From the IMG/VR virus record IMGVR_UViG_3300028844_004135: 13,377 nt of DNA. One strand, written 5' to 3'. The stretch comes from a virus. This document shows positions 816 to 13,233 of the stretch, in pieces. Position 1 is the first letter of the stretch. Each line of letters begins with the position of its first letter. The position numbers were made by a program, and so were the translations under genes. The notes beneath the pieces are model-generated. The model had not been told where the DNA came from. It did no database searches and saw only the letters and a program-made list of their open reading frames with translations.

Positions 816-2168
816 TTATAGGCTAATCCAAGTACCAGTAGTAGTAGCTCTACCTTCTTTAAAGTAGGTCTTACCTGCAAAGGTACCACTTAGTATTAGA
901 CATACATAATGTACACGGTCAATGTCACCATTTGTTCTACTAAGGAATAGTTGTGTATGTGCACTTTGACCTACTGCATCTTCTGGAAAAGAGAAAGCAT
1001 CTCCTGCAAAAGTAGGCTGTACATTACGGTAATACCATTCAATCTTTTGTAGAGGCATGTTATTAAAAGTGGTACCACTAGGGTAAGCACCTGCTGAAAT
1101 AAGACCTGCTACTACATCATCACCAGTACCACCAATAGAAGGAGTAACAATAAGTTGAGTTTGGGTTACAGGGTCCCATACACGGTTTTGTACCACAGTC
1201 ATAACAGGTAAGTTATAACCTTCACTTAATATAATACCACCACCACCACCAGAAGATTCTAACTCAGACCATTCACCATCTTTACGAGTGTACTGTATAC
1301 CATCAATAGGAGCATCAGCAATGGAAGCATCTACCTTAGTCTTAAGTTCTGTAGTAAAAGAAGCAGTAGTATTAGTTAATACAGAGGCTTGTGGTTGTTT
1401 GTTGTTTAATGCGGCATTAAGTTGAGCATTGTCACTAGTGAGTCCAGTTAAATCTCCGAAACCTACACTAACATCAATTACAGGCTTCTTAGCATCTGTA
1501 TTATTAACTGTAACAAGGTCACCACCTACTACTTCACTAACACCACCACCAGTAACAAGAGACTCTAAGTCAGAAACTTGTTGTCTACTCATAACACCAG
1601 ATTTAGTGGTAGTAGCACTAGGTAATGATTGTAGTGCTGAGGTTTGACCACTTAGTTTAAAGAAGTAATTGTCTTGGTCAGAGTTCTGTACAATCTCAAC
1701 TATTGTGTCATCATCTAATTTAGTGTCAATACTATTACTTAAAGTAGTAAGTTCAGTTTCAAGACCTGTAATTGTGTCAATACTTTGTGAACCAGTCATA
1801 TTACTACGTGAGAAAGCATTTGCGGCCTTTCCAGTAGGGTCATATACACTAGCTAACATGTCACCAGTACCACCACCACCGCCACCTGTAGCTGTAGAGC
1901 TAATAATAGGGTTGCTAGGGTCTGTGTTGTCAATAGTAATATTGTCTCCTGCTACTACAGACATAACACCTGCGTCTACTGTAGTAACTTCACTCCAATC
2001 TGCATCTTTACGAGCATACTGTTTACCGTCAATAGGGGCTTCACCTATACCACTAGTTGGTTCTGTCCATGTGTCTAATATTTCCTCAGCTCTGTTAGCC
2101 TGTAATACTAGTTTATTCTTAGCCGCTACAATCTCAGCGGTAATTGTTTCATCTACAAATTGTGCCAT
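816..2168 (-). CDS. Tail fibre / receptor-binding protein
   Basis: It is 450 aa with duplicated motifs. EAPIDGKQYARKDADWSEV (aa 43-61) pairs with DAPIDGIQYTRKDGEWSEL (aa 285-303). GVMSVVAGDNITIDNTDPSNPII (aa 67-89) pairs with GVSEVVGGDLVTVNNTDAKKPVI (aa 209-231). It has Gly6 and Gly5 linkers and the fibre-typical motifs MLASVYDP and ATTTKSGVMS. Confidence 0.8.
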   Translation of the reverse strand: MAQFVDETITAEIVAAKNKLVLQANRAEEILDTWTEPTSGIGEAPIDGKQYARKDADWSEVTTVDAGVMSVVAGDNITIDNTDPSNPIISSTATGGGGGGTGDMLASVYDPTGKAANAFSRSNMTGSQSIDTITGLETELTTLSNSIDTKLDDDTIVEIVQNSDQDNYFFKLSGQTSALQSLPSATTTKSGVMSRQQVSDLESLVTGGGVSEVVGGDLVTVNNTDAKKPVIDVSVGFGDLTGLTSDNAQLNAALNNKQPQASVLTNTTASFTTELKTKVDASIADAPIDGIQYTRKDGEWSELESSGGGGGIILSEGYNLPVMTVVQNRVWDPVTQTQLIVTPSIGGTGDDVVAGLISAGAYPSGTTFNNMPLQKIEWYYRNVQPTFAGDAFSFPEDAVGQSAHTQLFLSRTNGDIDRVHYVCLILSGTFAGKTYFKEGRATTTGTWISL

Positions 2169-2189
2169 TATATTTATTCCTTTTATATT

Positions 2190-2208
2190 AGAGTGGAGTA
2201 CCCACTCT
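2190..2208 (-). other. Intergenic stem-loop between the 166-aa gene and the fibre gene
   Basis: AGAGTGG-agtac-CCACTCT has a perfect 7-bp stem and starts right after the TAA at 2209-2211. No U-tract follows on the minus strand, so it is not a classic terminator. Confidence 0.45.
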
Positions 2209-2709
2209 TTAGTTTATTACTTTTGAGAGAACTAGAGTATTCATAAACTCTACTCCATCAACTGCTTGTTCAAATTGTGAAAGGTTACTCCAATCAACTT
2301 CATAGAAAGCTCGGTCATTTACTATGTTTTCCTCAGCAGAGGTGTATATTAAATAACAACGTCTATAACTACTCTGTCCATTGTTTTCCCAGTAGTTAAT
2401 ACCTATAGTTGTAAAAGGGGAACCTTTAAACATAACGTAATCAGGGTCAACACTCTTACCTATACCTGTAAACCTACCTCCCTCATTAGTGTAAACAGAG
2501 GGGTCAATAACAGGGAAGTCCTGTCTAGTGTGTAGCTCTAACTCAGCCTCAATCTCTAGTCTTTGAAGGTCTGCTACAGGCTCTAGAGATGATTTAGGTC
2601 TATTTAAAGGTACTAGTTGACCTTCTCCTCTCTTATATATATAATCATCATAATCTTTACGAATAACGGTATATATATGTCTAGTTAAACCTCTTGTTCT
2701 TTTACTCAT
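2209..2709 (-). CDS. Hypothetical protein (166 aa), possibly virion or tail-associated
   Basis: It has an ATGA overlap with terL and a basic N-terminus. It lies between terminase and fibre. No family was recognised. Confidence 0.55.
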   Translation of the reverse strand: MSKRTRGLTRHIYTVIRKDYDDYIYKRGEGQLVPLNRPKSSLEPVADLQRLEIEAELELHTRQDFPVIDPSVYTNEGGRFTGIGKSVDPDYVMFKGSPFTTIGINYWENNGQSSYRRCYLIYTSAEENIVNDRAFYEVDWSNLSQFEQAVDGVEFMNTLVLSKVIN

Positions 2710-4172
2710 AGTCTTGTTCTACCTCTTATTTTACGTTGTGGACTAATCTTAATCTGAGTAGTAATCATTTTCTTAGTTAGGATGAACAGTAAATCTGCCA
2801 AAGCATCGGCTTGGTCATCGTGTACACCTCGTTTACGTACATTGAAGTCTAGAGATTCTAGTTCCTCAAAGAACTTTTTATTCCAAGGTGCATTTACTAC
2901 AAAGATTTTACGTTCTTGTGCTAATATACTAACAGGTTCAAAACGTAATGCTTTTCCTTTGTTCGTATTACATATTATAACATTAAAACCTAATCGACTT
3001 AGCTTTGATTTACAGTTGTCAGCACTTTCTTTACCTGCCGCTCCAACATCACGAGGAATACCTACTACACAACCCTTACCATCTTTGGAACCATCCTTTT
3101 CAATAGCTTGTTGTACCATAGCAGGTCTGTCTTTTAGTATAGTTACATCCTCAACCCATAGGTTACCATCTTCATCTAGACAGCCTTTAATACCTACACT
3201 AGCATCTGGGTCAGGGTTATTAGGATTAGGCTTAGTAGCCGCTCTGTCCCAAGCTCTAGCTCTACGTAAATGTTTAGGTACATCAGCAGAGTCTACCATA
3301 GTAACCCACTCTTGTTTGAATAGTGAACCACCACCAACATCAGCAAACCAACAACCTTCATAAAGTTTCATTCTCTCTACTCTAGGTAAGTTTTTAAGTT
3401 TACCAATATAACTAGGTAAGTGTTTTACAATCCATGGGTTGTCATATACGTTAGCAGAGTAGAATACAAACTTCTGTGGTTCTAATTCAGTAGTAAATTC
3501 TTCACCATATTCATCAACAAAGTCTTGGTATTCTTTTCTAAACTCTACTGTACCTGCTACTTCTGCCATGTAGGTAGTCTTACCATCCATTTCTTTAACA
3601 GGGAATCCTTTTTCATCTAAGTAACCACCTTTAATTAGCCATTGACATAAGTAAGAATTCTTCTCAGGGTTACAGGTTAACTTTAATTGGTGTTTCTTCT
3701 TAGATTTACTACGTAGACGAGAGCCTAAGTATAATACACCTTGCTCTGGTAATTGCTGTGCTTCATCTATAAGGAAACGTGTACATTGTGCTCCTTGGTA
3801 GTTGTGCTTGTCTTGTTCCTTGTCTAAAGCACCTAGTTTTAGTTTAGCACCACTTGAGAATTGGAAGTCCATAGCTTGACCACGGGGTTTAATACCAAAC
3901 TCAGAGAATAAATCACATGCACTGTCATACATACTACCTGCATTCTTCATCACTTCTTTCGTTTTACGTATAATCATAGCTCTAAATAGTGGGTCATCAT
4001 AACCACTAACTAACAAATCAATTAAACTAACCTCACTTTTTCCTGAACCAGCACTTCCTCCCCAACAACATATGTCATTAACGTCATCATTAAGGTAAAG
4101 TTCCTGTTTACGTGAAAGGGGTCTTACTAGTCTAATCTCTTTTAACTGGTCTTGTGTGTATTTATATGCCAT
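2706..4172 (-). CDS. terL: Terminase large subunit
   Basis: It is 488 aa with RBS AAGGAG. It has Walker A GGSAGSGKS, Walker B RFLIDEAQQL and the TCNP motif. The C-terminal RNaseH-like nuclease region carries AWDRAAT and VHDDQADAL acidic motifs. Confidence 0.95.
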   Translation of the reverse strand: MAYKYTQDQLKEIRLVRPLSRKQELYLNDDVNDICCWGGSAGSGKSEVSLIDLLVSGYDDPLFRAMIIRKTKEVMKNAGSMYDSACDLFSEFGIKPRGQAMDFQFSSGAKLKLGALDKEQDKHNYQGAQCTRFLIDEAQQLPEQGVLYLGSRLRSKSKKKHQLKLTCNPEKNSYLCQWLIKGGYLDEKGFPVKEMDGKTTYMAEVAGTVEFRKEYQDFVDEYGEEFTTELEPQKFVFYSANVYDNPWIVKHLPSYIGKLKNLPRVERMKLYEGCWFADVGGGSLFKQEWVTMVDSADVPKHLRRARAWDRAATKPNPNNPDPDASVGIKGCLDEDGNLWVEDVTILKDRPAMVQQAIEKDGSKDGKGCVVGIPRDVGAAGKESADNCKSKLSRLGFNVIICNTNKGKALRFEPVSILAQERKIFVVNAPWNKKFFEELESLDFNVRKRGVHDDQADALADLLFILTKKMITTQIKISPQRKIRGRTRL

Positions 4173-4193
4173 TATTTATGCTCCTTATAAACG

Positions 4194-4229
4194 AAAAAAG
4201 GAGGGCAGGGAATAAACCCATACCCTCCT
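4194..4229 (-). terminator. Rho-independent terminator or attenuator directly after the capsid gene
   Basis: The minus strand reads AGGAGGG-tatgggtttattccctg-CCCTCCT followed by TTTTTCG. The TerL RBS (AAGGAG) lies just downstream. Confidence 0.75.
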
Positions 4230-4249
4230 ATGATGTAACTTAACTTAAA

Positions 4250-5251
4250 TTAAGCTTTAATTGTTAAGTAGAATACAGAAGCAATCTCTTGTAATACTAC
4301 TAAAGTGTTTTGTTCACTTTCAGTTTCAACGTAACGGTCTTTAGGGTCACGGTATGAACTAGCGAAACGTTTAGCACCAGAAGCACCAACACCAGACAAT
4401 TTACTAACTGGACCAAAGAATACATTACCTAAAGAACCACGTGGTAATAGTACAGCTTCATCGTCAGCTAATGGTTGAACACTAGAACCTTTAACGTTGA
4501 ATACGTCATCATATTGAACTAATGTAATGTTACCGTATTGGAATGAAACATAACCGTTAGCAACTTCACCTAATTCATTACGTAGTGGAGAGTTTTGACC
4601 TGCTACTAAGTAACCTTCTTTAATACCTTCTTGACTAACGAAAGCATCGAAGAAATCAGCACCACATAACATAACATAACCACGTAAACGACCACCGTAA
4701 GTTTTCTTAATTTGGTTAGTCAATGCACGGAATTGAGATTCCATAGAAGCAGTAGCACTAAAGTCAATTTCAGAAGTTTTCTTAGTAACACCGAACTCAG
4801 AGAACATGTCGATTGTACCAAAGTTAGTAGTAGCTAGAACGCCTTTACAAAGCATGTTAGCTTGTAAGTATTCTAATGTGTTGTCATGTTGCTCAGATTG
4901 TTTCTCAAGTTCTTCTGCTACTGCACCTTCAATTGCTTGTTCAACATCAGTGTCAAAGTTACGAATACCTTTAAGCTGTTTAACAGTGATTGTACCTTCC
5001 ATCGGGTAATGTGGGATTGGTAGTAAATGAGTTTTGTACTCAGAAGCATCTACACCATTTTTCTTGTCTGTATTACGTAGGTGGTCATCAAGAACTACTA
5101 GACGAGACTCACGTTCATCAAATGTAATTGAATCAGCGTTAGAAGTTTCTTCACCAAATAATCCTAAAGCAGAGATTAGGTTAGGTTTGAATGGGATTAG
5201 AGTGATTGCTTTAGTACGGTCAACGTAAGTTGAGTTGTTTAAAATAGCCAT
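4250..5251 (-). CDS. Major capsid protein (lambda gpE-like, HK97 fold)
   Basis: It is 333 aa with RBS AAAGGAA. The blocks IPFKPNLISALGLF, LPIPHYPMEGTITVKQLKGIRNF and TLEYLQANMLCKGVL, plus the C-terminus QNTLVVLQEIASVFYLT, resemble Phage_cap_E-type capsid proteins. A strong terminator follows. Confidence 0.8.
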   Translation of the reverse strand: MAILNNSTYVDRTKAITLIPFKPNLISALGLFGEETSNADSITFDERESRLVVLDDHLRNTDKKNGVDASEYKTHLLPIPHYPMEGTITVKQLKGIRNFDTDVEQAIEGAVAEELEKQSEQHDNTLEYLQANMLCKGVLATTNFGTIDMFSEFGVTKKTSEIDFSATASMESQFRALTNQIKKTYGGRLRGYVMLCGADFFDAFVSQEGIKEGYLVAGQNSPLRNELGEVANGYVSFQYGNITLVQYDDVFNVKGSSVQPLADDEAVLLPRGSLGNVFFGPVSKLSGVGASGAKRFASSYRDPKDRYVETESEQNTLVVLQEIASVFYLTIKA

Positions 5252-5280
5252 TGTATTTATTTTCCTTTTATATTATTGTA

Positions 5281-5302
5281 ACGAACGAGATTACCCGTCC
5301 GT
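5281..5302 (-). other. Intergenic RNA stem-loop upstream of the capsid gene
   Basis: The minus-strand RNA ACGGACG-N8-CGUUCGU forms 7 bp including one G-U pair. The plus strand would have an A-C mismatch, so the structure is favoured in the sense transcript. Confidence 0.4.
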
Positions 5303-5311
5303 ATATTTGAT

Positions 5312-5569
5312 TTATGCTACTACGATTGATGCAGGTAAAGTTGAAACATCACCTGTTAATTCAGAAGCTTTAACGATCGATGGGTTACCACGAACCATAA
5401 CACGTACAATTTCACCTGTAGAACCACCAGCAGAAACGATTCCACCATCTACAATTTCACCATCTACTGCGTCTGCGGCTAAAGTTACTTCTGCAAAACA
5501 TACATCGTAACCTCCATTAACTTCCATAATCCACTGTTCTGGTGCTTTTACTGTTGCTATAACTGGCAT
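5312..5569 (-). CDS. Head decoration-like protein (85 aa; gpD/DUF2190-like position)
   Basis: The RBS is AAGGAA. It is a Gly/Val-rich beta-type protein immediately upstream of the major capsid gene. Confidence 0.4.
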   Translation of the reverse strand: MPVIATVKAPEQWIMEVNGGYDVCFAEVTLAADAVDGEIVDGGIVSAGGSTGEIVRVMVRGNPSIVKASELTGDVSTLPASIVVA

Positions 5570-8472: not shown

Positions 8473-8970
8473 TTATTTGTAACAGTGTTGTAACTGTTTA
8501 TGTAAATCTTTAGCTAGGATTACTTCACCATTATATAATATAGTAGCTTCTTTAAAGACTTGTGAGGCTTTTAAACCCTTTTCATCTACTACGGTGTCAT
8601 TATAAGTGAAGTCTCCTCTGAGGTGGTGTGTAATAGCCTTATTTGCACATACCAGACTATTCATCCAGTTCTTAATTGTGGTAGTTGAATATAACTTCTC
8701 CCCTGTAGCAATACGTTTTACATTGAGGTATTCAGCTACTGTAATAGTACTGATTTCATCTAACACACTAATCATACGAAATACTCTATATGAAGAAGGT
8801 GGTCTTGTTCCTGTTTGTAAGTTACCACTACCTGCTAATAAGTCATCTAACCATTCTGGTATGAAGTTAGTGAATGAATTGTAGTCATAAATGTCCTGAC
8901 CTACCTTTTGTAAGTATTCTTTTACTTCTATATTCTTTGTTACTATTACACTACCTTTAGTTCTAGCCAT
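8473..8970 (-). CDS. HTH-like DNA-binding protein (165 aa); small-terminase, regulator or initiator candidate
   Basis: The RBS is AAGGAGA. ITVAEYLNVKRIATGEKLYSTTTIKNWMN is a putative HTH segment. The size fits a TerS, but the gene is not adjacent to TerL. Confidence 0.4.
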   Translation of the reverse strand: MARTKGSVIVTKNIEVKEYLQKVGQDIYDYNSFTNFIPEWLDDLLAGSGNLQTGTRPPSSYRVFRMISVLDEISTITVAEYLNVKRIATGEKLYSTTTIKNWMNSLVCANKAITHHLRGDFTYNDTVVDEKGLKASQVFKEATILYNGEVILAKDLHKQLQHCYK

Positions 8971-10558: not shown

Positions 10559-11005
10559 CTAAAAAGGTATTCCTTCACCTAACTTACTACATAATACTCG
10601 TTGTCTAGAAGCTTCAATCTCTTTAGCTACATTAATAGCAGGTAGGAATGGCATAACCTGTTTACATAATTTAATATATTCATCCTCAGAACTAAGTAGT
10701 CTTACTAAATCCATTACAGCCTCAAAGCAAACAGCACGAAAAGGGTTACCAACACTATTATAATGAATCTGTACATACTGAGTTAAATCATTCTTAACTA
10801 GAACAGCATCCTGTGTGTCTGTAGCTTCCATAAAGACGATTTTAGGTAAGGTTAATAGCATTGCATTCATCTGTCTCATACTCAACCCTAAAGCCTTATT
10901 AAGCTCCTTAAATGAATATAAGTTTTGGTTAGTTTTAAAGGGGGCTACCTCTTTACCCCAAATTACTAGTGTAGGGTAGATTGCTGTAGTTGTTTCATTG
11001 TTCAT
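10559..11005 (-). CDS. Hypothetical protein with HTH-like segment (148 aa)
   Basis: The ATG is preceded by AAGGAGA. SFKELNKALGLSMRQMNAML looks like a helix-turn-helix. No family was confidently recognised. Confidence 0.5.
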   Translation of the reverse strand: MNNETTTAIYPTLVIWGKEVAPFKTNQNLYSFKELNKALGLSMRQMNAMLLTLPKIVFMEATDTQDAVLVKNDLTQYVQIHYNSVGNPFRAVCFEAVMDLVRLLSSEDEYIKLCKQVMPFLPAINVAKEIEASRQRVLCSKLGEGIPF

Positions 11006-11046
11006 ATATTTCTCCTTATGGATTAAAGCATTATTGCTTAGGTGTT

Positions 11047-11074
11047 ACTATACTCTTATTATTATAGTATGCAA
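11047..11074 (-). promoter_or_regulatory. Sigma70-like promoter for the 148-aa gene
   Basis: The minus strand reads TTGCAT (11069-11074), a 16-nt spacer, then TATAGT (11047-11052). RBS AAGGAGA and the ATG at 11005 follow. Confidence 0.6.
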
Positions 11075-11119
11075 CACTTTATTTAAAATTATTATACTTT
11101 TCTTTACTATAAGGGCACC

Positions 11120-11142
11120 ATAATAAAAGACACCCCTATATA
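11120..11142 (+). repeat. Repeat A copy 1 (ATAATAAAAGACACCCCTATATA)
   Basis: This 23-mer recurs at 11184-11206 and, with one mismatch, at 11357-11379. Confidence 0.9.
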
Positions 11143-11175
11143 CTAGACAATAGATTACACTAAATAACAGTGGGT

Positions 11176-11206
11176 TATACTAAATAATAAAAGACACCCC
11201 TATATA
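11176..11206 (+). repeat. Repeat A copy 2
   Basis: The perfect 28-mer TATACTAAATAATAAAAGACACCCCTAT (11176-11203) is identical to 11349-11376. Confidence 0.9.
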
Positions 11207-11230
11207 TACCTTACTTAAAGTGTTCAAGAC

Positions 11231-11266
11231 TAATACCTAATGTGTGAGCGTAGCGAGTTGGTATTA
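11231..11266 (-). repeat. Hairpin unit H1 (inverted orientation relative to H2-H4)
   Basis: Arms TAATACC/GGTATTA flank a 22-nt core. The core TGTGTGAGCGTAGCGAGT (11241-11258) is the exact reverse complement of 11388-11405. Confidence 0.85.
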
Positions 11267-11293
11267 AGATTATTAATTTAATAACAGTGTGCC

Positions 11294-11311
11294 TTTGACT
11301 TTAGTCTTTTA
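11294..11311 (+). repeat. Repeat D copy 1 (TTTGACTTTAGTCTTTTA), contains a TTGACT -35-like hexamer
   Basis: It matches 17/18 in inverted orientation at 11500-11517. Both copies are followed by ATCTTTTAAAA (11321-11331; complement of 11472-11482). Confidence 0.8.
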
Positions 11312-11348
11312 ATAAAACAAATCTTTTAAAACAAAATTACTTAAATAA

Positions 11349-11379
11349 TATACTAAATAATAAAAGACACCCCTATTAT
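11349..11379 (+). repeat. Repeat A copy 3
   Basis: It shares a perfect 28-mer with copy 2 and sits immediately upstream of hairpin unit H2. Confidence 0.9.
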
Positions 11380-11380
11380 A

Positions 11381-11414
11381 TATAACTACTCGCTACGCTC
11401 ACACATCAGTTATA
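11381..11414 (+). repeat. Hairpin unit H2
   Basis: Arms TATAACT/AGTTATA flank the 20-nt core ACTCGCTACGCTCACACATC. Confidence 0.85.
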
Positions 11415-11499
11415 TGTTAGAGTACTATACTAAATAATACTATACTAAAGTGATTAAAAGATTAAGTTCTTTTTTAAAAGATTATTTTATATTAAAACC

Positions 11500-11517
11500 T
11501 AAAAGACTAAAGACAAA
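11500..11517 (-). repeat. Repeat D copy 2 (inverted); possible minus-strand promoter TTGTCT-N16-TAATAT
   Basis: The minus strand reads TTTGTCTTTAGTCTTTTA followed by ggttt TAATAT. The repeat is certain; the promoter reading is weak. Confidence 0.6.
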
Positions 11518-11556
11518 ACCAATACTATTATTACTAACGTAATGGTGTAGTACTAT

Positions 11557-11590
11557 TATAACCAGTTCACTACGTTCAATAGTGGTTATA
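11557..11590 (+). repeat. Hairpin unit H3
   Basis: Arms TATAACCA/TGGTTATA flank the 18-nt core GTTCACTACGTTCAATAG, which is related to the H2 and H4 cores. Confidence 0.8.
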
Positions 11591-11603
11591 GTGTAGAATA
11601 GCC

Positions 11604-11633
11604 CTTGACCTTAATCTCTTATTATTTAATGTA
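11604..11633 (+). repeat. Repeat D copy 3 (degenerate), TTGACC-N16-TAATGT
   Basis: CTTGACCTTAATCTCTTA resembles copy 1. If active as a plus-strand promoter, it would transcribe H4 antisense to the KilA-N 3' end. Confidence 0.45.
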
Positions 11634-11658
11634 AAACCTGTGTTAAGTATAATACTAT

Positions 11659-11695
11659 TATAACCAACTCGCTAACGCTCATACATGTGGTTATA
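11659..11695 (+). repeat. Hairpin unit H4, overlapping the KilA-N stop codon
   Basis: Arms TATAACCA/TGGTTATA flank the 21-nt core ACTCGCTAACGCTCATACATG. The right arm contains the TAA stop (11691-11693). Confidence 0.85.
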
Positions 11696-12323
11696 GGGTA
11701 ACTCTATTTTGTATAGCCTCTAGTGTACTATTAATAGCCTCAATATTCTCCTTCATCCAAGCCTTACCTAAACGAGTAATACGTAAAGAACTACCATGCT
11801 TACCATAGTTCCTATTCTTTAGTATACCACGCTCAATAAAGCTTTCTAACTGCTTAGGCTTCTTGGCAAGTTGCATGAATAAAACTATATGACTTACATC
11901 TAACATACCACAAGCGTCTCTAATAGGTGTCTCAGCGTAGTTCATCCACTTATTGTGTGAGTGAGTCTCTATAGAGGTTGTTTGTGCTAATGCTACAGCT
12001 TTCTCAACCTCACCATTACGTAAAGCAACAAAAGATTCTACTACAGTACTATAGAAGTCAAAACTAATCCACATTGCATAAGCTACTGTAGCAAGCTCAT
12101 CACCACCGATGTAAGTAGAAGTTCCTGCACCTAAGTGATTGATTTGTATAGACTGTGAATTCCCACTCTGTAGTAATGCCTTACCTGTTTGGTAACGGTT
12201 GAATTGGGAAGGACGTTTAGAATCAGGTAACGACTCTCTATTCCAAATGTCATTAAGGTTTAAGAACCCATCATCATTAGAGGTGTAGCTATTGTTATTA
12301 ATAATTATTGTAAATACTTTCAT
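11691..12323 (-). CDS. KilA-N domain DNA-binding protein
   Basis: The blocks GFLNLNDIW and LATVAYAMWISFDFYSTVVESF match the KilA-N pattern. I moved the start from the GTG at 12347 to the ATG at 12323, which follows AAGGAGA at 6-nt spacing. Confidence 0.7.
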   Translation of the reverse strand: MKVFTIIINNNSYTSNDDGFLNLNDIWNRESLPDSKRPSQFNRYQTGKALLQSGNSQSIQINHLGAGTSTYIGGDELATVAYAMWISFDFYSTVVESFVALRNGEVEKAVALAQTTSIETHSHNKWMNYAETPIRDACGMLDVSHIVLFMQLAKKPKQLESFIERGILKNRNYGKHGSSLRITRLGKAWMKENIEAINSTLEAIQNRVTL

Positions 12324-12405: not shown

Positions 12406-12633
12406 TTATTCTTCTTTAGCTTCAACCTCCTTTAAGTTCTCTATAAATTTAGCTAACCAAACATCATCAGCAGTATTAGTAGTGTATTTAGTAATACGAG
12501 TAGCTAAGTCTAATAACATCCATTGCATAAACTTCTCACTCGCCATAGACATAATCATAGTGACAAGAGTCTTACCTAATTTACCTACAAGTGACTCTAG
12601 TACCCATAAGATTGGTTTCATAAATAACGGCAT
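12406..12633 (-). CDS. Hypothetical early protein (75 aa), hydrophobic N-terminal half and acidic C-terminus
   Basis: The ATG is preceded by aaaAGGAacaaat. It is the first ORF after the right-end leader. The overlapping plus-strand ORF 12386-12649 has no RBS. No family was recognised. Confidence 0.55.
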   Translation of the reverse strand: MPLFMKPILWVLESLVGKLGKTLVTMIMSMASEKFMQWMLLDLATRITKYTTNTADDVWLAKFIENLKEVEAKEE

Positions 12634-13167
12634 AATTTGTTCCTTTTAGTTGTGTAATAACCCTAATACTGAGAATTCAGCGTTAGTAGTATAATTGAAT
12701 AAAGTAATATGTAATCACCTTATTGTTATAGTATAACATATATTAATCTAATCATGGTGTATTCAGTCCCCTATAAGGTAATAATGTCTATTCTAAGGCT
12801 CGTAAACTCACCTTAGAGGAGTGATGGGACTATAGCAATGTAATCATTCGCCTACGTGAAATGGGCTGTGTAGATGGTGGAATAAATGGTCTACAGAGTA
12901 TGGTACGCCTACGTTAGTAGGAATTGGTGTAGACATAGTATAGTACATTATGTGATGGATTATTTCATCGTAGAGAGTGGTAAAACACTGTGTGGATGAT
13001 GGTCATATTGGGACGTGATTATAGTGTGAGAAATGGTTAAATTATGGTGATGTGTTAAAAACCGTTTCTACTGTATAAATAACCAGTAGTTTCAATAAAT
13101 ACAAGTACCTGACGTTAATTTCATTTTAGGATTCTATAAATAGGGCTTACGAGTACTAATTCCCACT

Positions 13168-13214
13168 GACAAATCAATAAATAATTATGGGAATCTGCTA
13201 ACGACAAATCAATA
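13168..13214. repeat. Phased 12-bp direct repeats GACAAATCAATA just inside the right terminal repeat
   Basis: Perfect copies lie at 13168-13179 and 13203-13214 (35-bp spacing). A third partial copy, GAATCAATA, begins the terminal repeat at 13237-13245. Confidence 0.85.
13184..13212 (-). promoter_or_regulatory. Candidate early promoter TTGATT-N17-CATAAT
   Basis: The minus-strand -35 TTGATT (13207-13212) lies inside the second 12-bp repeat, with -10 CATAAT at 13184-13189. It would give a ~540-nt untranslated leader, so this is tentative. Confidence 0.35.
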
Positions 13215-13233
13215 TTTCATTTGGTCAATCTCA

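Follow-up and report, generated by a model that had tools for sequence, protein, structure and literature searches.

Introduction

The closest described counterparts of the element considered here are the single-strand origins of small Gram-positive plasmids, in particular the ssoA (palA) signals of the pT181, pE194 and pMV158/pLS1 family. ssoA is around 160 nt long, folds when single-stranded, is primed by RNA polymerase and functions in one orientation only; part of it, the RSB, is a known recombination site (PMC5703833). The CS-6 box of such signals has been defined as TAGCG(T/A) (PMC4598088), and in ColE1 the lagging strand is served by ssiA and the leading strand by ssiB (PMC3167613). How double-stranded DNA (dsDNA) phages prime their lagging or complementary strand in sigma-mode replication is poorly defined, as is the way in which replication starts in tiny phages without replication genes. 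Here we analyse a repeat-dense non-coding block (positions 11100 to 11695) of the virus record IMGVR_UViG_3300028844_004135 (13,377 nt, the whole stretch being referred to as the window), in which four short hairpins, H1 to H4, carry a loop related to sequences in ssoA/palA and in hairpins of unrelated phages.

Our favoured reading, held tentatively and with a little less than even confidence, is that the block is a lineage-specific, non-coding region for replication priming or initiation that is run by host enzymes, the H units being miniature sso-like priming signals. A broader proposal, possible but rather doubtful, is that hairpins of the H type form an undescribed, widespread and strand-specific class in tailed phages, prophages and a few bacteria, that they are lagging- or complementary-strand initiation signals of dsDNA phages, and that the four copies found here make up a complete origin without a phage initiator.

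Four hairpins in a non-coding block

The block was first picked out in an initial annotation made from the sequence alone, and its description of the hairpins has proved accurate. There are four hairpin-capable units with perfect stems of 7-8 bp and loops of 18-22 nt, 34-37 nt in total, built on three different stem sequences (Table 1). H1 is inverted with respect to H2: the 19-mer core ACTCGCTACGCTCACACAT occurs exactly at 11240-11258 on the minus strand and at 11388-11406 on the plus strand (chance expectation 0.00), and the two units form an inverted repeat of 32 nt at 88% complementarity. The complement of the H2 loop is found without mismatch in the H1 loop, which is also partly complementary to that of H4. 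As had also been claimed, H4 lies over the stop codon of the neighbouring KilA-N gene, its 3' arm (11688-11695) covering positions 11691-11693.

The stems of these paralogous copies stay paired through compensatory changes (ATACC/GGTAT, ATAACT/AGTTAT and ATAACC/GGTTAT). In H3, the inner GCGTAGC has become ACGTAGT, a change on both sides that keeps the pair. The trinucleotide CTA before the stem is common to H2, H3 and H4 and to many long-form members of the wider family described below.

Three other identities for the H units were considered and rejected. The inverted terminal repeats of a miniature inverted-repeat transposable element or transposon (for H1 and H2) and a duplex binding site with palindromic arms were both ruled out, as other taxa conserve the loop, not the arms. 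A coding mini open reading frame (ORF) in the loop (MCERSE...) has no ribosome-binding site, and in H4 and H2 it stops after 4-6 codons.

A wider family with a conserved loop

A loop of about 20 nt, reading YTGTYTGAGCG-N-AGCGAGTT on the G-rich strand (the G-strand), caps long hairpins whose stems are unrelated, in no fewer than 15 viral contigs and two bacterial metagenome-assembled genomes (MAGs). We define the family by this combination of a variable stem and a conserved loop; no Rfam 15 family matches it. We propose that the apical loop is the recognised part of the element. In species genomes the H core was found at 15 loci, which is below our estimate for chance. In two unrelated MAGs, one from the Elusimicrobiaceae and one from the Chromatiales, the exact core lies in the loop above perfect 9-11-bp stems of unrelated sequence. 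The Chromatiales MAG has a second, diverged and inverted copy 270 nt from the first. In the Elusimicrobiaceae MAG the hairpin belongs to a multi-copy 148-nt element found at or near the start of two contigs (L049, 1-148; L035, 1-110). The copies in this MAG each lie upstream of a pilin-like gene and have a promoter-like stretch in common, and those at 1-148 and 3438-3585 of L049 form a 97% inverted pair on either side of a 3.3-kb segment that holds rpsB, tsf and a pilin-like gene.

Scanning IMG/VR for AACTCGCTNCGCTCA gave at least 120 matches, and all counts given here are among the 120 matches listed. Perfect stems of 8-12 bp flush with the motif were present in 18 of these 120; the stems of the others measured 1-6 bp, as expected by chance. 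The initial annotation had suggested weighing covariation of the arms against conservation of the core, and an alignment of eight viral hairpins bears this out: nine of nine outer-stem pairs change on both sides, the loop is invariant and RNAalifold agrees. Because these examples were selected for their stems, the evidence lies in enrichment and covariation, not in the fact that every one of them pairs.

The element normally takes a long form, a multi-tier imperfect hairpin of 130-200 nt (seen in contigs L061, L118, L126 and L049) whose internal loops and termini are conserved. Folded as single-stranded DNA (ssDNA), the long-form members give extended hairpins whose apical loop holds the motif (z -2.1 to -7.8). 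This folding is strand-specific. The G-strand folds better in 16 of 18 members (mean -51.0 versus -42.5 kcal/mol), the two exceptions being the two lowest-quality candidates, and the 18 members together hold 106 G.U/G.T pairs on the G-strand and 42 on its complement. If a duplex inverted repeat simply decayed neutrally, both strands would be affected alike; the bias therefore points to selection on a single-stranded G-strand fold, either RNA or ssDNA.

The centre of the inner GCG-N-AGC appears to be free: across the 18 members the base on the C-strand is A, G or T, and H4 has two bases at this point. Hirao and colleagues reportedly found d(GCGNAGC) to form a very stable mini-hairpin, and a variable centre between invariant G and A is the signature of a DNA mini-hairpin of the GNA type. 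The free centre and the both-sided change in H3 match the pattern that a GNA-type mini-hairpin would predict.

We built a covariance model, R1, from the eight viral hairpins, with no window sequence included, and its matches all fell on the predicted strands. The strongest were to the Elusimicrobiaceae MAG (41.8 bits, E 1.1e-7) and to the first copy in the Chromatiales MAG (38.8 bits, E 6.6e-7; the second copy scored 26.2 bits, E 0.0012). Within the window, R1 matched H1 on the plus strand (28.0 bits, E 4e-4) and H2 on the minus strand (23.1 bits, E 0.008), with a marginal match to H4, also on the minus strand (18.4 bits, E 0.13). Two hairpins of the gut phage MT836516 were recovered as well (24.6 bits, E 0.0031, and 24.1 bits, E 0.0042). 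Flush variable stems and the conserved loop (exact in H1 and H2, with an insertion in H4, diverged in H3) are seen in the window units, whereas the long single hairpin typical of the family is replaced by four clustered short copies on both strands. As judged from sequence, H1 and H2 are members of the family in a miniature form; H3 is counted as a member by paralogy with H4 only, because R1 misses it.

Members occupy a variety of positions. In P2-like prophages the element lies between the small-terminase and head-tail adaptor genes; elsewhere it follows an XkdN-like tail chaperone gene or stands beside an O-like replication gene. In the gut phage, annotated 'Bacteriophage sp.' (MT836516.1, L053), the two hairpins with a CTCGCTGCGCTC loop fall in a G+C-rich, non-coding and hairpin-dense region of about 2 kb (3350-5400), which holds several repeated-hairpin families downstream of an SSB gene and a 522-aa orphan. 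This region may be a larger analogue of the block; apart from SSB and an M15 peptidase, the proteins of MT836516 offered no pointer to function. A Clostridium beijerinckii plasmid (NZ_CP073654.1, L050) carries the 20-nt core AACTCGCTACGCTCACACAA, with no obvious flush stem, in 1.6 kb without annotated genes (2007-3642) that adjoins ParA-like and Phd genes; at about 2940-3070 of this locus the sequence looks like a large structured RNA. The Firmicutes-type myophage contig L118 has, in addition to its family member at 8809-8850, a second hairpin at 2074-2117 with a 10-bp stem. The loop of this second hairpin begins AGCGGTAGCGA and contains GCGGTAGCG, which we take to be the core of the RfaH ops element.

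Searches of known collections returned little. Rfam 15 gave only a sub-threshold NiCo riboswitch match at 3403-3486 for the whole window, outside the block, and only sub-threshold matches to unrelated families for the block, two long-form members and the MAG element. A literature search by sequence string found nothing relevant, only primers and vector sequences; the latter pointed the way to the ColE1-type match discussed below.

A sequence link to plasmid single-strand origins

R1 together with a simple pattern search located the loop core in three well-studied rolling-circle plasmids. In pC194 the exact core sits in the loop of a hairpin (AAGGATTT/GAGCGTAGCGAA/AAATCCTT). In pE194 (GAGCGTAAGCGAAAGTAGTAGCGA) and pT181 (TTGTTAGCGAGTTGG, which has 12 consecutive bases in common with H1) the strand with the core also carries a 16/17 match to the RSB box, and the core follows 48 nt downstream of that match. 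Traces of the RSB are found in the hairpin family too. Its first 8 nt, TTATGCCG, stand 29 nt upstream of the core in the Elusimicrobiaceae element, on the strand that carries the core, and the stem of P2-like members reads AGGAAAATTT at the place of GAGAAAATTT in RSB.

At the level of sequence, then, the hairpin loop is linked to ssoA/palA. The box GAGCG-N-AGCGA(GTT) contains or adjoins the CS-6 hexamer, which in the window reads TAGCGA in H1, H2 and H4 and TAGTGA in H3. Like the hairpin family, ssoA/palA is non-coding and depends on the hairpin fold of one strand; ssoA/palA functions on that strand only, to which the strand-specific folding of the family would correspond, and the long-form phage members are of about its size.

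A candidate priming or origin region

We infer three things: the hairpin family works at the level of ssDNA and not of RNA, its short-stemmed copies in the window have activity, and the block constitutes the origin. If the DNA of the block became single-stranded, each H unit would fold on its G-rich strand. Unwinding might start at either of two AT-rich stretches, through transcription from promoter-like sites, or by strand displacement in sigma-mode replication. The inner GCG-N-AGC would form a compact mini-hairpin, and the folded unit would then mark, for the host enzyme priming the complementary strand (in ssoA, RNA polymerase and then Pol I), a point at which to start or stop. The signals of H2, H3 and H4 would lie on the minus strand and that of H1 on the plus strand. 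Since minus is the sense strand, it would be the lagging-strand template for a fork moving with transcription. H1 and H2, being opposed across AT-rich stretch 1, could direct priming or loading on both strands. Priming by host enzymes would fit a 13.2-kb genome without a recognisable replication protein. The layout is also in keeping with such a role, in that the repeats are confined to the block, occur beyond chance and are accompanied by AT-rich stretches arranged as a dyad around A3-H2.

Several observations weigh against this proposal. The G.U pairs of the family are many and fit RNA at least as well as ssDNA. Taken singly, the H hairpins are weak as RNA (-5 to -11 kcal/mol, z -0.4 to -1.8); the core of H3 is diverged and not recovered by R1, and H4 is marginal. 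Other phages have one good copy per contig stretch examined, and the genes that flank the element vary, with the element in either orientation, giving no pointer to replication specifically. In the block there is no DnaA box at one mismatch or fewer (10 genome-wide, against 24.7 expected), and we found no GC-skew switch informative for an origin. The relatives of the window phage identified by their capsid proteins (see below) replicate without any such hairpin element: the block is absent from every one sampled, as are conserved-loop hairpins and R1 matches. The initial annotation had looked to relatives for conservation of the repeat families, and their absence counts against a core, family-wide function.

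The comparison with ssoA itself is also imperfect. The RSB box (TTATGCCGAGAAAATTT, some 50-70 nt upstream) is missing from the window, where the best matches of 8-9/17 are at background. The window stems measure 7-8 bp against a hairpin of about 150 nt in ssoA, and only the whole block folds well; there are four copies on both strands instead of one. The window is a tailed-phage genome in which no rolling-circle initiator was detected, and ssoA has been described from Gram-positive plasmids whereas the hairpin family includes P2-like prophages and MAGs of other phyla. The pE194 and pT181 regions are not predicted to fold with the motif as a simple apical loop, and R1 scores the plasmid sites weakly. 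Because the plasmids fold otherwise and score low, the relation rests on shared sequence boxes rather than on a shared fold; and because the RSB is missing from the window and the plasmid ssoA fold differs, ssoA is best regarded as the closest known kind and not as the family to which the window units belong.

The initial annotation had itself interpreted the block as a replication origin, of the type with iterons beside a gene for a DNA-binding protein. The involvement in replication survives as our favoured reading, through the loop in common with ssoA/palA and the strand-specific phage hairpins. The iteron and Rep mechanism is not supported: repeat spacing is irregular (64 and 173 bp in family A; about 149, 177 and 102 bp in family H, with no tandem, regular iterons), DnaA boxes are lacking from the block, no initiator is recognisable in the genome and homologues of the KilA-N protein occur without the block.

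Layout of the block

The block lies in a 685-bp gap (11006-11690) that, as first reported, has no ORF of 60 aa or more, only ORFs of 25, 41 and 30 aa on the plus strand. It occupies approximately 5% of the 13.2-kb genome length. Besides the H units it contains two further repeat families, A and D, and no copy of A, D or H occurs elsewhere in the genome. A pattern search of IMG/VR with the A 18-mer, the H 19-mer and a degenerate H pattern gave no match.

Family A was described correctly as three direct copies: the 18-mer AATAAAAGACACCCCTAT is present at 11122, 11186 and 11359 (chance expectation 0.04; no shuffle reached three), and A2 and A3 have in common the perfect 28-mer TATACTAAATAATAAAAGACACCCCTAT (11176-11203 and 11349-11376). 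Family D stands as an inverted pair with one mismatch (chance expectation 0.04), whereas the looser third copy was not recovered at three mismatches or fewer. D2 and the adjoining AT-rich DNA form a 37-nt inverted repeat, 73% complementary, with 11300-11336, which covers D1 and its AT-rich flank. Short ACTAAATAA repeats and very AT-rich stretches are present, in line with the original description; the G+C content of the two stretches (about 11300-11360 and 11440-11500) is 10-17%. The 64-bp spacing between A1 and A2 prompted us to consider a CRISPR-like array, which was ruled out: there is no repeat palindrome, regular spacing or cas gene.

With H1 and H3 also placed symmetrically, there is dyad symmetry on a large scale in the middle of the block (H1-D1-AT / A3-H2 / AT-D2-H3). 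Taken as a unit, the block folds much more stably than shuffled sequence, whichever strand is used (z -7.4 and -6.6), an effect of its long-range inverted repeats. Among three assemblies the block is 99.85-100% identical, with whole genomes at 99.8-100%, and its only single-nucleotide polymorphism, at 11373, falls within A3. Promoter-like sites in the block are not more numerous than in shuffles. The site at 11047-11074 is of the same type as a TTGCAC-N17-TATAGT site upstream of KilA-N and is a putative promoter; sigma-70-type promoter-like sites of comparable kind occur in a T7-like contig (L031). Families A and D are left unexplained by a priming model and may be promoters, operators or initiator sites.

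Table 1 Repeats, hairpins and neighbouring features of the non-coding block, in window coordinates
Feature	Position	Strand	Description
148-aa orphan gene	10559..11005	-	Immediately downstream of block
Promoter-like site	11047..11074	-	TTGCAT-N16-TATAGT; upstream of 148-aa gene
A1	11112..11145	+	Core AATAAAAGACACCCCTAT at 11122-11139; 5' part degenerate
A2	11176..11207	+	TATACT is the -10 of promoter-like ATTACA-N16-TATACT, 11154-11181, + strand
H1	11231..11266	+	G-rich, active-type strand, opposite to H2-H4; stem TAATACC/GGTATTA; loop TAATGTGTGAGCGTAGCGAGTT
D1	11294..11311	+	TTTGACTTTAGTCTTTTA; holds palindrome GACT-TT-AGTC
AT-rich stretch 1	~11300..11360		10-12.5% G+C; between H1/D1 and A3/H2; candidate unwinding region
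A3	11349..11376	+	Directly abuts H2; + strand promoter-like site at 11325-11354
H2	11380..11415	-	Stem ATATAACT/AGTTATAT; minus-strand loop GATGTGTGAGCGTAGCGAGT
AT-rich stretch 2	~11440..11500		15-20% G+C; internal AT palindrome 11458-11493
D2	11500..11517	-	Inverted copy of D1, 1 mismatch
H3	11557..11590	-	Stem TATAACCA/TGGTTATA; diverged minus-strand loop CTATTGAACGTAGTGAAC
D3	11604..11621 (approx.)	+	Loose D-like copy CCCTTGACCTTAATCTCTTA; weak
H4	11659..11695	-	Stem TATAACCA/TGGTTATA; loop with 1-nt insertion, minus strand CATGTATGAGCGTTAGCGAGT
KilA-N domain gene	11691..12323	-	210 aa from ATG after AAGGAG; early-type; immediately upstream of block in direction of transcription

Genome context and relatives

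The 3' end of the window repeats its start over 144 nt, giving a unit length of 13,233 bp, and two further public assemblies are permuted forms of the same genome at 99.8-100% identity. Because of the terminal copy and the permuted assemblies, the genome can be considered complete and either circular or terminally redundant. Every credible gene is on the minus strand. Taken in order of their transcription, genes for a 75-aa membrane protein and the KilA-N domain protein precede the gap, and the 148-aa orphan heads a run of 16 same-strand genes (about 10.5 kb): it is followed by 61-, 95-, 316-, 165-, 162- and 85-aa proteins, a Mu-type portal, 127-, 114- and 85-aa proteins, a gpE-type major capsid protein, the large terminase, a 166-aa protein, a fibritin-like fibre and finally a 71-aa membrane protein (508-723).

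No replication, tail-tube or integrase gene is recognisable in the 13.2-kb genome, none of the window proteins matched Rep, HUH or another replication family, and there is no tRNA or tmRNA gene in the window. Sequence searches of the PDB with the unknown window proteins gave no functional match. A search of 5.8 billion proteins gave no homologue of the 148-aa protein, in which no DNA-binding domain was detected either, and neither this protein nor KilA-N has close relatives in IMG/VR. More distant KilA-N homologues (48-54% identity) are found in unrelated phages, and these are without the block. In one of the assemblies (ENA ERZ27295583, L001), the gene calls split KilA-N into two ORFs of 84 aa, and a C-to-T difference at 12070 has probably introduced a stop codon; this split suggests that KilA-N is dispensable in that population. 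The strong AAGGAG ribosome-binding sites of the genome appear to argue against a Bacteroidota host.

Beyond the 71-aa gene lies a second large non-coding region of about 1.1 kb (12650-13233 plus 1-507). Its position, between the 71-aa membrane-protein gene and the early genes, is kept in relatives. The region has almost no repeats and no Rfam match; its plus strand is G-rich at 12750-13050, with a GC skew of up to +0.39. Early promoters, a structured RNA or the genome ends may be located there.

A capsid-based search identified a family of 11.5-14.4-kb contigs with 45-48% capsid identity to the window, among them one circular contig and one dimer-like contig of 24.4 kb. These encode a portal, capsid, large terminase and fibritin-like fibre, with no recognisable tail-tube, replication or integrase genes, and may represent either very small phages or satellites that form capsids and never integrate. 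Among 185,579 species genomes there was no relative of the window phage. What the capsid relatives have in common with the window is only the module from the 85-aa protein to the fibre, plus the 71-aa gene in most and the 162-aa gene in some. The early region of about 5 kb differs in each lineage, and it is in this variable region that the block sits, with no translated similarity (tblastx) between the block and the relatives.

The relatives' own cassette in the variable region consists of a divergently transcribed WYL-type gene and a small ORF. In two of them (L005, 1171-2449; L009, 186-1273) a counterpart of the 75-aa gene (12406-12633 in the window) is followed by an SLT-domain endolysin and small ORFs that are taken to be spanin-like. 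In the window, KilA-N and the block occupy the position of this endolysin, and no endolysin is recognisable anywhere in the genome. Descent of the block from decayed lysis genes was considered and ruled out, there being no tblastx signal to the SLT endolysin region of the relatives. The large non-coding region of L005 (338-1171) contains several short TTGACA/TTGGACA repeats, such as ttcattggaca twice, which are possible promoters or iterons; its equivalent in the window is repeat-poor.

Alternative explanations

The first alternative, which is possible though on the unlikely side, places the function of the hairpins in RNA. They would act in transcripts as processing or stability, antitermination or protein-binding signals, or in small RNAs made from the plus-strand A boxes, and H1 could pair with the H2 and H4 loops in the manner of antisense control by P4 CI RNA or P1 c4. 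Strand-specific folding with some six G.U pairs per element is typical of structured RNA, and the long form has conserved internal loops and termini. The gene context is suggestive too: the G-strand is the sense strand of the P2-like late operon, between the small-terminase and head-tail adaptor genes, and H4, H3 and H2 lie in the sense strand between KilA-N and the 16 downstream genes. Within the block, plus-strand promoter-like sites at A2 and A3 stand just upstream of H1 and H2, the complementarity of which is extensive, and the fold of the whole block is strong. On the other hand, such sites are not enriched over shuffles, and the flanking genes of L118 and L139 run antisense to the G-strand, for which L118 shows no obvious promoter. 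Rfam 15 has no match for the window, the block or two long-form members. The sequence link goes to plasmid elements that act as ssDNA, and the variable centre between invariant G and A is the mark of a DNA mini-hairpin of the GNA type. Should the hairpins nevertheless act as RNA, they would represent a new structured RNA motif common in phages.

An unlikely alternative is a transcriptional switch in which A, D and H are operators or promoters for KilA-N, the 148-aa or the 165-aa protein, turning the structural operon on and the early genes off. The block does lie exactly between the early-type genes and the rest of the genome, with promoter-like sites on both strands; D holds a short palindrome, the D/AT-rich arms are dyad-symmetric around A3-H2, and the variable region of the relatives has a different regulatory cassette. 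However, conservation of the H loop extends to unrelated phages and to MAGs and plasmids, none of which have these proteins, and the arms covary freely, so that H is not a phage-specific duplex operator. KilA-N homologues elsewhere do without the block, and the 148-aa protein offers neither homologues nor a DNA-binding domain. A switch is viable mainly for families A and D, and for these two alone the evidence neither supports nor opposes it.

That the H units are selfish or decaying DNA, the remnants of a mobile or recombination-prone hairpin that was duplicated locally and has no function for the phage, seems improbable. Such an origin would account for the absence of the element from all sampled relatives, its diverse intergenic sites in unrelated phages, its multiple copies at contig ends in one MAG, and the short window copies with a degenerate H3; the RSB, moreover, is a known recombination site (PMC5703833). 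Yet with 5% of a 13.2-kb genome given over to the block, useless sequence is unlikely, the paralogous stems keep pairing by compensatory change and the layout is ordered and dyad-symmetric. The near-identity of the block in three assemblies points the same way weakly, the whole genomes being 99.8-100% identical.

Lastly, a packaging region of the pac or cos type, with the repeats as small-terminase sites comparable to the oriented R sites of lambda cosB, is very improbable: repeats in both orientations with AT-rich, bendable DNA between them, a contig with a 144-nt terminal overlap and a P2-like long-form element that adjoins a small-terminase gene would all suit it, but the block is 6.8 kb from the terminase gene, no small terminase was identified, the loop is shared by phages whose terminases are unrelated and by plasmids, which never undergo packaging, and single-strand-specific folding is no feature of pac sites.

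Comparison with known systems

Iteron origins (lambda ori, plasmid rep-ori modules, P4 ori/crr and the ori of phage-inducible chromosomal islands) resemble the block in combining repeats and AT-rich DNA beside a gene for a DNA-binding protein. They differ in having tandem, helically phased iterons and an initiator gene, neither of which is found in the window, and the best-conserved repeat of the block is a single-strand hairpin loop, not a duplex site.

Two RNA or transcription-linked systems offer partial likenesses. In P4 CI RNA (seqA/B/C) and P1/P7 c4, as in the block, one loop faces several complementary copies in a leader-like region, here beside a KilA-N gene of the antirepressor type. 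There is, however, no Rfam match of any family in the window or block, and since the loop is shared with plasmid origins and unrelated phages, the complementarity of H1 and H2 may simply reflect their opposite orientation. The RfaH-recognised ops/JUMPstart element, which we take to be the 12-nt GGCGGTAGCGTG, resembles GAGCG(T)TAGCGAG. It is a tiny hairpin of the non-template DNA strand, and the window has three copies on the non-template strand upstream of a same-strand gene run. Unlike the hairpin family, which occurs in either gene orientation, ops is confined to certain proteobacterial operons and needs no outer stem. JUMPstart and the C4/CI antisense RNA are both presumably in Rfam; neither JUMPstart nor any other Rfam family matched the block or the two long-form members.

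The primosome assembly sites of the phiX174 type (n'-pas/ssiA, ssiB) come nearer in function, being ssDNA hairpins that let host proteins start a complementary or lagging strand, and in ColE1 two signals serve two strands just as the block has hairpins on both. There is some likeness in sequence as well. The stretch GAGCGCAGCGAGT, 13 nt of the loop core, is found in the ori-proximal region of more than 2,100 ColE1-type plasmids (for example pECO29, L175, 501-559), and AAGCGAAGCG, an identity of 9-10 nt, in the F-G intergenic region of phiX174 (L174, about 146-164). In pUC19, GAGCGCAGCGAGT is presumably on the strand displaced by leading-strand synthesis, and the ColE1-type and phiX174 stretches are probably PriA primosome assembly sites. 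Such sites have no agreed sequence family, and they were not recovered as hairpins: R1 gave 11.7 bits, a partial match, on the ColE1-type plasmid and nothing on phiX174. AGCG-N-AGCG may be a common signature of ssDNA initiation signals.

Should the sso-like reading be true, a mechanism of small Gram-positive rolling-circle plasmids would extend to tailed phages of several phyla, the covariance model would be a searchable marker for such sites and the block would be a compact candidate origin for phage genomes of 12-14 kb that have head genes and no recognisable tail-tube or replication genes. The initial annotation knew of no described element with this architecture. For the block as a whole that still stands, whereas the hairpin unit is of a recognisable class: it is akin to the single-strand signals of the sso and ssi type, and the broader phage family to which it belongs is undescribed as far as Rfam 15 and the searchable literature show.

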